This document shows, in pieces, positions 9,540 to 46,942 of a DNA stretch of 64,000 nt. The stretch's first letter is position 1, and every line of letters begins with the position of its first letter. The notes beneath the pieces are model-generated. The model did no database searches. It saw only the letters and a list, made by a program, of their open reading frames with translations, and was not told the origin of the DNA. This DNA comes from Octopus vulgaris. Lineage: Eukaryota. The translations under genes were made by a program, and so were the position numbers. The stretch is from NCBI GenBank assembly GCA_951406725.2, contig OX597814.1, positions 124,496,001 to 124,560,000 on the forward strand. The letters are read 5' to 3'.

Positions 9540-10070
9540 TGTGTTATGAGAATTATAGGATAAAATCCTATGTAAACCCAAATAACAGTTAAGAAATGGA
9601 GAAGAGACGATGTTAAAACTTTTTATAAATTTTTTATCCGTATGATCGTTTCGAACGATAATACTGACATGTAAGAAAACATGGAAAAAAATTAAATTAA
9701 TTATAATAATAATTAATAATAATTAAGTTAAATTAATTCAATTGGTATTACCAATCTCTTCAGAGGAAAAAATTAATAAAACATAAAAAAATGTATTAAC
9801 AAAAGAATATTACAATAAGACTACAGAGAGTCTGTGTCGGTTAAAGTTGATCGGATATTCATAATAAGAATGTGAAATGGGAAAAGAGAGATGTAGGAAC
9901 ATGTTAATGTAGTGTTGAGTCTATCTGTGTAATTTAATTTTTTCCACGTTTTCTTACATTTCAGCATTATCATTCGAAACGATCGTATAAAAACTTTTAA
10001 CATCTCTTCTACATTTTTTAACTGTTAGTTGGGTTTAAATAGGATTTTATCCTATAATACTCATAACACA
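9540..10070. repeat. Long inverted repeat (arms ~9540-9699 and ~9930-10070)
   Basis: tgtgttatgagaattataggataaaatcctat pairs with ataggattttatcctataatactcataacaca; tgtaagaaaacatggaaaaaa pairs with ttttttccacgttttcttaca. Confidence 0.9.
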
Positions 10071-10094
10071 TTTTTAATTTTATATATATATATA

Positions 10095-10245
10095 GGGAGA
10101 GTTTATGAAAAAACAAAAGACGAAGACAGGTGGTGTACAAAACAAACAGATGTATTAGTATAACGTTCAGGAATAGAAAAAGTCTTTTACATTTCGAGCA
10201 TACGCACTGTAGAAAGGGACACAGAAAAAAACAAGGAGAGGAAAA
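10095..10245 (-). mobile_element. Short interspersed repeat with degenerate hammerhead-like core (same family as 44708-44903)
   Basis: aaaagacgaagac...gtattagt...aaagtcttttacatttcgagc is the reverse complement of sequence at 44780-44890. Confidence 0.75.
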
Positions 10246-10247
10246 AA

Positions 10248-10444
10248 CACAAAAATTCAGTTACAAGTAGATGTGAAAATTTCTTGCCATTGCTTGCGAC
10301 CTATATATATATATATATATATATATATATATATATACTGGCCAACCAGCTAGTTTAAAACAAATCACTGCTGAACTGTGTCACCGAGTAGATTGCAGGC
10401 AGTGTCAAAAAATTTTGGCATCTACTTGTAACTGAATTTTTGTG
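10248..10444. repeat. Short inverted repeat (arms 10248-10303 and 10389-10444)
   Basis: cacaaaaattcagttacaagtagatg pairs with catctacttgtaactgaatttttgtg. Confidence 0.9.
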
Positions 10445-10544
10445 ATTTTGAATGGTTACAATGAGTCATGCACACTGTAATTGCTCTATGTTCGAATGTT
10501 TGTGTGTGTGTGTGTGTGTGTGTGTGTGTGTATACACACTTATA

Positions 10545-10745
10545 TAGCAGCCATGTAACAAGTGCCTTTCTCAGACTATTCTTTTCCTTCTTAAAGGGTT
10601 TTTTCCGCTTTCTCTTTCGGAGGAAGAGCTATGCTGGAAACGTCACAACCCTCTCTTCTTTTCTATCTTAAACTTTCTCTGAGAGTCAATCTAATGCATT
10701 CACTCTGCCCTCCTGACATTTGTTGCTTCTTTTAATTCTTCATTT
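10545..10745 (+). mobile_element. Short repeat with degenerate hammerhead-like core
   Basis: CGGAGGA(10618)-a-gagc-tat-gctg-GAAAC-GTC(10644); layout resembles the reverse complement of 55535-55740. Confidence 0.5.
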
Positions 10746-10747
10746 GC

Positions 10748-11028
10748 ATCTATCTATCTATCTATCTATCTATCTATCTATCTATCTATCTATCTATCTA
10801 TCTATCTATCTATCTATCTATCTGTCATCTATCTACCTATCTATCTATCTATCTATCTATCTATCAATGTATCTATCTATCAATGTATCTATCTATCTAT
10901 CTATCTATCTATCTATCTATCTATCTATCTATCTGTCTGTCTGTCTGTCTGTCTGTCTATCTGTCTGTCTGTCTGTCTCTCTGTCTATCTATCATCTATC
11001 TATCATCTATCTATCTATCTATCCATCT
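10748..11028 (+). repeat. (TATC)n/(TGTC)n array upstream of the LINE
   Basis: Direct reading. Confidence 0.95.
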
Positions 11029-11296
11029 ACGGACGTGCTGTCACTTCGGCTCCGAAGGTAATCGTTTATTTTGACTATTTATAGCCCATATTTTGTGTAC
11101 TTTTTTGTAAATAAGGTGTGTAAGGCACCCAACTTTCGTTTGAGTGCTTTTCCAAGGGAGGAATTCGCCCCTAGGGGCAGTTTCAACCCTATTTAATTTG
11201 TGTAATTTTCTTCTCGACATTTTGAAAATATCGAGAAATTGTATTGTAGAACGCTGGTCGCGTTCCTTTATCGACCAACATTTTCCTAGTCTGGAA

Positions 11297-44110: not shown

Positions 44111-44604
44111 AATCAAAGGACACGATTAAGTGTCTACCTGCTAGAAATAAGAGTTAAAGCTCTCATTCGGACCACCAAAAATTACAGTGAAAATAACAGA
44201 TACAACAGTGTACTGGCGAGCGAACCGAAAAACCACCTCTCACATACCTTTATAGCATAAAGTTATATATTTAATGGAACCGGTATATATGTGGACCGGT
44301 TTCTGGTTTAATACAAAGTTCTTACCCTCCTCAGAACATCTTAACTCTTAGAAACATCTTCCCAGTCTGCTACGTTGAAATCTGCTAGCGTTCTCAATTG
44401 GTCTCAAACCAGAAACCGGTTCACATATATTACTTGTTCCATTAAATATATAGCTTTATACTAGTATGGTATGTGAGAGATCTTTTTCGGTTCGCTCGCC
44501 CGTATACTGTTGTATCTGTTATTTTCAGTGTAATTCTTGGTGGTCGAAATGAGAATTTTAACTCTTATTTCTAGCGGGTAGACACTTCATTTTGTCCTTT
44601 GATT
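44111..44604. repeat. Long inverted repeat (arms 44111-44309 and 44406-44604)
   Basis: aatcaaaggaca pairs with tgtcctttgatt; ggcgagcgaaccgaaaaa pairs with tttttcggttcgctcgcc; accggtttctggttt pairs with aaaccagaaaccggt. Confidence 0.95.
44294..44334 (-). ncRNA. Minimal type-I hammerhead-like motif
   Basis: Reverse complement: CTGAGGA-g-ggt-loop-acc-a-GAAAC-CG-GTC, with palindromic ACCGGT at stem III. Confidence 0.65.
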
Positions 44605-44707
44605 TATATACATATATATATATATATATATATATATATATATATATATATATATATATATATATATATATATATATATATATATATATATATATATATA
44701 TATATAT

Positions 44708-44903
44708 CGGCATTCGCCATGATAGATCGTTAGCCACTAAACATTTCTCTATTTTCTCTCCCTGTTTATTTTTGTTTTCCTTTCTGTCGAAGAGCGTAGG
44801 CTCGAAATGTAAAAGACTTTCTCTCTTTCCGAGTATTAAACTAATACATATGTGTGTTGTTTACACACCCGTCTTCGTCTTTTGTTTTATTGTAAATTTT
44901 CAC
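44708..44903 (+). mobile_element. Short repeat with hammerhead-variant core between (TA)n and (TG/CG)n tracts
   Basis: CTGTCGA(44784)-a-gagc-gtag-gctc-GAAA-tGTA; homologous to 10095-10245 on the minus strand. Confidence 0.7.
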
Positions 44904-45302
44904 TGTGTGCGCGTGCGTGCGCGTGCGTGCGTGCGCGTGTGTGTGTGGATATGTATACGTGTATAAGCATGGTTGCATATATATATATGTGCATCTATTG
45001 GCGTATGTGTGGGTGCGCATGTGTGTTTCATGCGAGTGTGAGTGAGCATATGCATATAGGCACATGCACGTGGGTGTGCGTGCGCGCATGTACATGTATG
45101 TATGTATGTATGTATGTACATGCAAGCATACGCGATTGCTATGAACATTTTTACTCCTTTACTTTTTACTTCCACCCCTTCGGTTTTTTCCCTTATTTAA
45201 CGGCCATTCTAATAACTCTTTCGTCTTAATAACGGTCAATTACATAGTAATTTCCCTTTGTTTAACTGTCATTTTCATAGCATATTTTGATTGCTTTAAT
45301 AA

Positions 45303-45353
45303 CTGAAGAGATGCCGGAGCAGGTTTCCTCCCCGACATCCGAAACTCGGAGTT
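45303..45353 (+). ncRNA. Minimal hammerhead-like motif
   Basis: CTGAAGA-gatgccgg..ccgacatc-c-GAAACTC-g-GAGTT. Confidence 0.6.
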
Positions 45354-45676
45354 TTATTATGGCACATATTATATTACTGATATATATATATGTGTGTGTG
45401 TGTGTATGTGTGTGTGTGTGTGTGTGTATACACACAAGCACAAATACACGCACATATAAGTCAGTAGTATGTGATATATTAAAAAACTGAATTACTACAA
45501 GACATCATCTATAAAGAGATATAATAAGTAAATTAGAGAAAACATATTTAAAGTGAGGAGTATCAAAAAAATAATAACTCGGAAATACTGATTACATGAA
45601 TAAATATATATATTAATAAAGAACTGTTTGGTTAATATTATTTTGTTTCTTTTGAGAAGAAAGGGATATAACTTTT

Positions 45677-45707
45677 GACGTGTTTCGGTATTATTTGTTC
45701 TCCCCAG
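45677..45707 (-). ncRNA. Degenerate hammerhead-like motif
   Basis: Reverse complement CTGGGGA-gaacaaataatacc-GAAAC-AC-GTC; stem II is poor. Confidence 0.3.
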
Positions 45708-46818
45708 TGAAGCAGATACTTCACAATATATGATAAAGTAGCGGAGAGAGAGCCCCTGAGTAAATGTACAGAATTGTACATTTGGAGGTGTAGTAAAATA
45801 GATATGTTTTGAGAATGAATTATTCTTAGATGTCTTCTGCATAAAAAAATAATAGTTAAGTTAATGTTAGCATACTTAATGTAGTAAGCATAAAAGAAGA
45901 AAAAACAACAACAAAAGAACAAAAAACAAAATAAAACAAGAAAAAGCTAAAGTGGTAAAGGAAAGCGATATGATTCATGGACTAATATAACTGTTTTGAA
46001 TCTTGCAGCAAATACGTAGAGGTTCTAATGGAAACTGGAAATGCTTTGTATGTGAGTGTGTGTGTGTGTGTGTGTATGTGTGTGTGTGTGTGTGTGTGTG
46101 TGTGTGTGTGTGTGTGTGTGTGCGTGCGTGTTTGTGTGCGTGATCATGTGTATGTGTGAGGAACGGCGAGGAATTGAGAGTTGGAAATTACTGGGAATTA
46201 AGTAGAATTGGGAGATAGAGGTGTGTATGTATGTAGTATGTATTTGTGTGTGTGTGTGTGTGCGCGCGCGTGTATATGTATATATATATATATATATATA
46301 TATATATATTTATATATATATATGTGTGTGTGTGTGTGTGTGTGTGTGTGTGTACGTATGTGGATGTATATGCATACGTATGTGTGTGTATATATATATA
46401 TATATATATATATTTGTACATACATACATACACGCACACACATATATGCAGAGGAAGAGAGAAAGAGAAAGAGGGAGAGAAAGAGGGAGAGAGAGAGAGA
46501 GAGAGAAAGGAAAAGACAGAAGAAATATTGCAGTCTATATATATATACATGTATGTTTGTGTATGTTGTGTTTGAAGTGAATGCAGGAATGTAGTTGAAA
46601 GAGAGAGAGAGAGAGAGAGAGAGAGGGGGTGTGAGGAAGAGATAGATAGATAGATAGATAGATAGATAGATAGATAGATAGAGAGGGAGAAGGAGAGATA
46701 GATAGATAGAGAGAGAGCTTGTGTATGTTTGTGTGTTTGTGTTTACGTCAAGTTTTATACAGAAACAGTTTGAGGATCACTCAATTATTTTTAGTTGAGC
46801 ACACATTAAAAACAAAAC

Positions 46819-46942
46819 CTTTTACACAGAAAAGGTTGACAGGGACTTCGAACTTTCAGCTTGCTCACCATTCATCCGACTCTCTGATGAAGGTGAGAGA
46901 ACCGAAAATTCGAAGTCACTGTCAACCTATTCCTTGTAAAAG
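46819..46942. repeat. Near-spacerless palindrome containing a hammerhead-like motif
   Basis: aggttgacagggacttcgaa pairs with ttcgaagtcactgtcaacct; the right arm has CTGATGA(46884)-a-ggt-gagaga-acc-GAAA-attcgaa-GTC(46915). Confidence 0.85.

Follow-up and report, generated by a model that had tools for sequence, protein, structure and literature searches.

Insertion units of endonuclease-positive Penelope-like elements (PLEs) have been described in the excerpts available of PMC3846280 as a shorter inverted pseudo-long terminal repeat (pLTR) with a 31-bp tail on one end and an 8-10-bp duplication, and in those of PMC8557442 as an adjacent inverted 5'-truncated copy with a tail and a microsatellite bias, the octopus Naiads preferring (TA)n. 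Minimal hammerhead ribozymes, according to the excerpts of PMC4209133, occur as dual motifs on opposite strands, separated by 100-700 bp, are related to truncated metazoan PLEs, and in their type I form carry an extra base after A9, a G10.1-C11.1 pair and a palindromic helix III. The accessible part of PMC11167929 names uncleaved RNA as the main template, with reverse transcription beginning internally, downstream of the hammerhead, at AT-rich cuts, and that of PMC13282606 reports a PLE expansion in Octopus vulgaris. The present analysis concerns a 64,000-nucleotide stretch of the O. vulgaris genome, hereafter the window (contig OX597814.1 of assembly GCA_951406725.2, positions 124,496,001 to 124,560,000, forward strand), in which an earlier note, made from the letters alone, had singled out six inverted repeats (IR1 to IR6) with hammerhead-like cores and read them as inverted pLTR remnants of many PLE families, free of open reading frames (ORFs).

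All six inverted repeats were recovered by blastn (E 1e-6 to 1e-154, 75-91% identity), with arms of 60-390 bp, and the arms of different repeats were, as the note had put it, mutually unrelated, showing no significant similarity between repeats. They had no clear other copy inside the window, and pairwise comparison of the outward copies of IR1-IR7 gave nothing above z 2.5 except for the two IR3 arms with each other. Eight local inverted repeats with arms outside dispersed repeats were present in the window: IR1-IR6, a seventh unit at 21662-21839 that the note had not listed (IR7), and a mariner-type element at 54319-54883. Substitution distances between arms were 0.08 (IR2), 0.11 (IR1), 0.13 (IR5), 0.17 (IR6) and 0.27 (IR4), plus indels, and since the arms are 8-27% apart with indels, fold-back artefacts of the assembly were ruled out. 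At the synonymous rate of 0.0036 per million years given in the accessible part of PMC13282606, a hand estimate that ignores gene conversion puts this divergence at roughly 12-47 million years. The fold-backs derive from unrelated repeat families, and most are probably ORF-less, 5'-truncated pLTR insertions of PLEs with an inverted copy. The inverted-pLTR reading fitted IR4, IR5 and IR6, probably for IR1, and additionally for IR7; IR2 joined them by its architecture, IR3 stayed ambiguous, and no parent ORF could be linked to any of them.

Hammerheads were scored with a home-made structural descriptor against small shuffle nulls. The right copy of IR6 (46878-46942, + strand) held a near-canonical minimal hammerhead with an exact core at 46884, and by the traits in the PMC4209133 excerpts it showed the extra A, G10.1-C11.1, a palindromic 15.2-16.2 and a helix I with 5 of 6 positions paired; 0/150 shuffles and 0.9% of real background segments scored as high. 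The IR6 left arm (46819-46879, - strand) begins 1 nt upstream of its own core (46878, one substitution), and the turn lies at the 5' edge of helix I. A whole minimal hammerhead was also found in the left copy of IR5 (44111-44345, - strand), with an exact core at 44334-44328, palindromic helix III and helix I: scores as high came from none of 60 shuffles and from 5.9% of real background segments, a background that itself holds solo motifs. The IR5 right arm (44388-44604, + strand) retains the 3' half of the motif and adjoins (TA)51. Both arms of IR4 carry a decayed hammerhead, the left one (33437-33711, - strand) with its core at 33595-33589 and the right one (33788-34054, + strand) with its core from 33884 and a perfect palindromic helix III plus GUC triplet at 33909-33924; one core has one mismatch and the other two. 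Single IR4 arms were not significant (20/60 shuffles as high), while the union of the two arms gave a full motif with palindromic helix III and a score of 15.7 (0/25 shuffles), and nothing inward. The same union test gave nothing for IR6, where the motif sits at the edge of the aligned block, or for IR1, where it sits in the spacer, and is uninformative for both. A minimal type I hammerhead towards the outer (3') end was thus found in IR4, IR5 and IR6, for which the hammerhead claim of the note was convincing; the motifs of IR1, IR2 and IR3 did no better than shuffles.

IR7 (21653-21877, + strand) is a fold-back with the full Penelope signature. A 14-bp target duplication with one mismatch (21653-21666 and 21864-21877) lies beyond a 28-32-bp tail, with 0/200 null pairings as good, and the unit comprises a short inverted arm (21671-21705), a long copy, and a one-sided tail of ~30 bp (21832-21863). 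The long copy opens with a hammerhead remnant (21707-21755), helix I first; this helix is 7 bp long and perfect, and GAAA and a palindromic loop are present, although the core is too decayed for the descriptor. This layout matches the insertion unit described in the PMC3846280 excerpts. IR4, IR5, IR6 and IR7 are very likely inverted pLTR stubs of PLEs.

Exact CTGANGA..GAAA pairs, 7-40 nt apart, numbered 15 in the window against a shuffled mean of 4.7 (maximum 13, 200 shuffles). Five of them fell inside the six repeats, which make up 3510 of 38145 eligible bases (9%; p=0.009, or about 0.03 by hand with the IR2 arms counted once). A motif in or next to each repeat, as it had claimed, was exact in IR2 (both arms), IR3, IR5 and IR6 and inexact in IR1 and IR4, and the reading directions, outward in five and inward in IR3, were as described.

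The inexact motif of IR1 lies in the spacer (9736-9763, - strand): an exact core, CTGAAGA, is followed by a 7-bp helix II and by GAAT in place of GAAA, without helix I. An exact core followed by a helix II of at least 5 bp occurs only here in the window, the null mean being 0.24 per window. The IR1 left arm (9540-9715, - strand) is likely the 3' part of the long copy, and the right arm (9917-10070, + strand) likely the short inverted copy, beginning downstream of the motif. It is probable that IR1, too, is an inverted pLTR stub of a PLE.

The note had called the arms locus-specific, and this was wrong for IR2, the only repeat checked for copies, which proved multi-copy in public contigs. Contigs of four public sequencing runs (coded organisms A, B and C) were aligned on 18785-19862 at 80% likeness, and contig details are drawn from 32 of 1355 pieces and 24 of 361 loose ends. 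Each of the four runs gave 172-411 contigs of the region, mostly less than 95% alike. Summed depth in run X1, which by the tool's own warning is not copy number, was about 20,000 over the outer 60 bp, compared with depths of 20-80 for the single contigs listed, and had a second peak of about 7,800 at the core motif. The left arm (18874-19259, - strand; core halves at 19096) is the short inverted copy, while spacer and right arm together (19264-19828, + strand; core halves at 19609) form the long copy, which ends at (TA)17. The family terminus at 18866 appeared as loose ends in TA runs with unlike flanks in 4/4 runs. What had seemed the left flank (18785-18865, - strand) also occurred in multiple copies, and in three runs (X1, X2 and X3) contigs differing by 8-15% joined it to the arm; it is therefore an extension on one side only, at least 80 bp long and set off from the arm by a short TA run, a junction that other copies share.

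In other family copies the IR2 spacer was continuous with the right arm only: in contigs of X2 and X5, 116 more letters preceded 19264, with no left-arm match listed for them, and, leaving aside bins flagged as skipped repeats, depth was lowest in the bin at the junction of left arm and spacer. Other fold-backs with other turn points were indicated by same-strand skips, from 18971 to 19709 (X1, X2) and from 18978 to 19741 (X5, with 14 letters between). A shorter inverted copy at the 5' end of a longer truncated copy, with a varying turn, was accordingly seen in the IR2 family, and for the other units this layout is read from geometry only. As far as aligned contigs can tell, the family is consistent with a truncated long copy to which a shorter inverted one is joined. 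Internal deletion of an element with long terminal inverted repeats (TIRs) would account for centres that vary, but less easily for a shared extension on one side only. Copies did not share both ends and interior as one TIR unit in this family, the only one examined in that respect. The IR2 motif has both core halves, but neither helix I nor helix III, and the core itself folds into a local hairpin; IR2 fits a Penelope origin by family architecture, though its motif is not a foldable hammerhead, and I consider it rather likely to be an inverted pLTR stub. A metagenome scan with the IR2 terminus gave 0 matches.

IR3 (29403-30306, no strand assigned) was the ambiguous case, with no outward hammerhead and an inward core at 30142 that lacks helix I. 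The inward union of its two arms scored 11.4, again with helix I absent, a score that has no null of its own. Subterminal 29-bp tandem repeats were found, and one half of the spacer has 13% GC. Its ends can be placed at a symmetric 3-bp TTA repeat, or, if an extension of 36 bp is added on the left, at a 7-bp repeat lying outside it. IR3 could be a TIR element, and its origin as an inverted pLTR stub of a PLE is somewhat doubtful. Old direct duplications lie directly to its left (28688-29117 and 29025-29413), with periods of about 155 and 240 bp and 63-71% identity.

Target duplications and turn points were compared across the units. The note had named TIRs with canonical target duplications as a sign against its reading, and none were found at the arm ends of IR1, IR4 and IR6; a symmetric duplication was TTA in IR3 and TA in the mariner-type control, and the ends of IR2 and IR5 are TA runs that are uninformative in this respect. 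Outer ends at TA tracts, another of its observations, held for IR2 and IR5 on the right, with a short TA run at IR1. A target bias towards AT-rich or (TA)n DNA was apparent from the IR2-family loose ends at 18866 in all four runs and from the IR5 right end. From core to outer end the distance was 223 nt in IR1, 222 and 219 in IR2, 223 in IR5, 158 and 170 in IR4, 117 in IR7 and 58 in IR6. The 219-223 nt span recurs in three sequence-unrelated families (9540-9763; 18874-19096 and 19609-19828; 44111-44334); this threefold spacing may be due to chance.

The proposal that inversion points lie near the ribozyme held for IR6 and IR7, where the inversion falls at the 5' edge of helix I, and, at 58 nt, loosely for IR5, but not for IR1, IR2 and IR4, which turn 116-345 nt upstream. 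Mapping the breakpoints against the predicted cleavage site, as the note had suggested, showed no turn at that site, which agrees with the uncleaved-template model in the excerpts of PMC11167929. Hammerhead cleavage was rejected as the source of these 5' ends, because sequence 5' of the cut site is still present in the long copies.

In a proposed mechanism, AT-rich or (TA)n DNA would be nicked by the GIY-YIG endonuclease of a parent PLE. Uncleaved RNA would then be reverse-transcribed from a point about 60-220 nt 3' of the motif, with early termination; the inverted arm would be joined to the 5' end either by priming a second time or by folding back, and independent decay would leave the arms 8-27% apart. 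What was observed is the repeats themselves, the outward remnants of IR1, IR4, IR5 and IR6, the one-sided multi-copy architecture of IR2, and the tail plus duplication of IR7. A more specific and unlikely extension is that the stubs record how octopod PLEs choose their ends: the nicked (TA)n target would pair with an internal UA run of the RNA, the 5' turn would be favoured at the helix I edge (IR6, IR7), and the ~220-nt spacing from core to 3' end (IR1, IR2, IR5) would reflect a shared ribonucleoprotein geometry, so that the ribozyme fold sets copy boundaries without cleaving. If UA-run priming were true, most IR2-family copies would stop at the UA run, and a minority would carry a longer tail.

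Several results weigh against a Penelope origin. No PLE reverse transcriptase (RT) or GIY-YIG match was found in 237 stop-free frames of at least 45 aa from unique regions of the window. Scored as whole hammerheads, IR1, IR2 and IR3 were equalled by 8/60, 34/60 and 15/60 shuffles, respectively. With a one-sided tail of 26-42 bp allowed, no tail plus duplication was found in IR2, IR4, IR5 or IR6; IR1 gave a 6-bp repeat that was not significant (0.24), and the 7-bp repeat of IR3 (0.015, uncorrected for 8 units) is at most a modest point. The IR2 extension exceeds the 30-40 bp reported for such tails, and copy number was looked at for IR2 only, through the summed depths given above. Rfam returned no hammerhead family for IR4, IR5, IR6 or the solo motif at 45303, nor among 150 of the 277 rows of a whole-window scan; this negative is weak, because solo motif 45303 went undetected too. 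Internally deleted long-TIR DNA transposons would also yield variable centres and TA ends.

This last point leads to the view that some or all of the units are miniature inverted-repeat transposable elements (MITEs) or internally deleted long-TIR (foldback-type) DNA transposons with chance motifs, which is unlikely overall, likeliest for IR3 and possible for IR2. IR3 speaks for it through its symmetric TTA, its subterminal tandem repeats, its GC-poor spacer half and the missing outward motif, and the TA-run ends of IR2 and IR5 are compatible with a TA duplication, while the terminal 60 bp of IR2 are common to a far more abundant family. The window also holds an element of that kind (54319-54883), which is presumably an internally deleted mariner-type element, a label that follows from mariner features; it has 35-bp inverted ends and a TA duplication, no Pfam match and no hammerhead. 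Used as a control, it scored only 0.8 with the hammerhead descriptor, whereas the motifs of IR4, IR5 and IR6 beat their shuffles, and did so outward only. Its arms of 35 bp also differ from the 60-390 bp arms of the six repeats, and the resemblance of Tc1/mariner-type MITEs to these units lies in inverted ends and the TA at the ends of IR2 and IR5. Nor does such an origin sit well with arm ends that lack a symmetric duplication in IR1, IR4 and IR6, or with the IR2 family, in which the extension is one-sided, the spacer belongs with a single arm and depth peaks a second time at the core motif.

A different history, in which solo pLTR stubs came first and gained their inverted arm later by replication template switching or fold-back repair unrelated to retrotransposition, appears very improbable. 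Solo hammerhead-bearing stubs are common in the window (10 of the 15 motifs) and most units have no recognisable target duplication, as this history would have it, but a single duplication encloses both arms and the tail of IR7, and in IR2 both arms have their outer end at the family terminus. The idea that the units are functional, expressed ribozyme-bearing hairpin RNAs, self-cleaving or kept as double-stranded RNA substrates, is hardly tenable. The exact cores retained in the IR6 right and IR5 left copies and the folding of the units as long hairpins favour it; the divergence of the arms with indels goes against it, as does the pairing of motif bases with the other arm. In whole-unit folds the mean probability of pairing outside the motif was 0.95 in IR2, 0.62-0.85 in IR4, 0.63 in IR5 and 0.71 in IR6, compared with 0.35 for the spacer motif of IR1; in two solo motifs it was 0.13-0.26. 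According to the excerpts of PMC4209133, a minimal hammerhead depends on a partner for dimerisation and is a poor self-cleaver in vitro, and each fold-back strand has one sense motif, leaving no dimer partner in cis. Because they are buried in the arm-arm duplex and single on each strand, the motifs are predicted to be inactive remnants or passengers in these copies. The note's picture of a dense source of ribozyme-bearing RNA hairpins was unsupported, most cores being decayed and the motifs pairing with the opposite arm in whole-unit folds; among runs carrying IR2 no RNA run was listed, and six rows presumed to be RNA showed shares of 0.05-0.06.

Set against the PLE insertion units in the excerpts of PMC3846280 and PMC8557442, the Penelope-like stubs proposed here share the shorter inverted copy at the 5' end of a longer one, the outward 3' ends, the ~30-bp one-sided tail plus duplication in IR7, and the TA-tract bias. 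They differ in having no ORF and no linked parent, in a tail and duplication that are unrecognisable in most of the six, and in the length of the IR2 extension. The minimal hammerheads in the excerpts of PMC4209133 are matched by the type I traits, by opposite-strand pairs in IR4 and IR6 and by the many solo motifs; unlike those, the copies in the window are decayed, IR2 has core halves only, IR1 lacks helix I, and the helix II foot of IR5 is unpaired or non G-C. In the available supplement of PMC8557442, Naiad_Obim and Naiad_Ovul show the same (TA)n preference, and Naiad_Ovul resembles IR2 in carrying a hammerhead half-core that fits no stem descriptor. Four exact 13-mers (IR2, IR4, IR5 and IR7) were absent from the Naiad/Chlamys/Hydra part of that supplement, searched on one strand of a text whose line breaks may hide matches. 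Non-LTR retrozymes, as excerpted from PMC7229834 and bioRxiv 10.64898/2026.07.22.740005, are likewise ORF-less, carry type I hammerheads and are thought to be PLE-derived. They are, however, head-to-tail tandems with at least two same-strand motifs, whereas each window unit is an inverted arrangement with a single sense motif on either strand; no tandem with at least two same-strand hammerheads was found among 150 of the 154 arrays listed for the window.

Ten of the 15 exact motifs lay outside the six repeats, and the two top-scoring hammerheads of the window (45303, + strand; 55664, - strand) are solo. Solo type I hammerhead-like motifs were located on the + strand at 45295-45360, 44775-44820, 10610-10650, 5600-5650, 49095-49145 and 62295-62335, and on the - strand at 55630-55670. 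A microsatellite follows 78-212 nt downstream in 6 of 10 solo motifs checked. The motifs at 44784 and 55664 are related to each other (z 12), and the 44784 family has a copy on the opposite strand at 10094-10310; an inverted repeat at 10243-10449 (61 bp, 85%) surrounds (TA)18 within the hammerhead-bearing repeat adjoining IR1. A metagenome scan with a solo motif returned one match, in a bacterial-looking contig (L001), judged to be chance. Rfam microRNA matches, all below gathering scores, were dismissed as microsatellite or hairpin noise.

Microsatellites make up 12% of the window and repeats dispersed within it 21%. A broken L1-type long interspersed nuclear element (LINE) lies at about 12190-16800 (+ strand), with zinc knuckle, endonuclease and RT in separate frames; its RT frame has its best named relative in Argonauta hians (68% identity), and four LINE frames searched against Pfam identified an L1-type LINE above cut-off (RVT_1, Exo_endo_phos). 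The 237 frames from unique regions gave nothing above cut-off in Pfam, and two sub-threshold matches were taken as chance. A repeat resembling a short interspersed nuclear element (SINE) forms 184-bp tandem dimers at 1849-2212, 30444-30807, 42160-42523 and 50576-51059; about 30 matching segments in both orientations are the source of most long-range inverted pairs in the window, and a 20-mer from it had no match in a literature text search.

The arrangement itself is already published in PMC4209133, PMC3846280 and PMC8557442, as far as their available excerpts go, and a search of titles and opening lines of abstracts on octopus and hammerhead ribozymes gave nothing on such fold-backs. The significance is modest: anonymous octopod hairpins, likely mislabelled by MITE finders, would be assigned to PLEs, and hammerhead remnants are frequent here, with 15 core..GAAA motifs in 64 kb compared with about 5 by chance. 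If the units are transcribed, their long hairpins could, speculatively, be adenosine-to-inosine editing substrates in a lineage known for editing. Collected genome-wide, the ends of such stubs could bear on where PLE reverse transcription starts and turns, a matter treated in the excerpts of PMC8557442 and PMC11167929.

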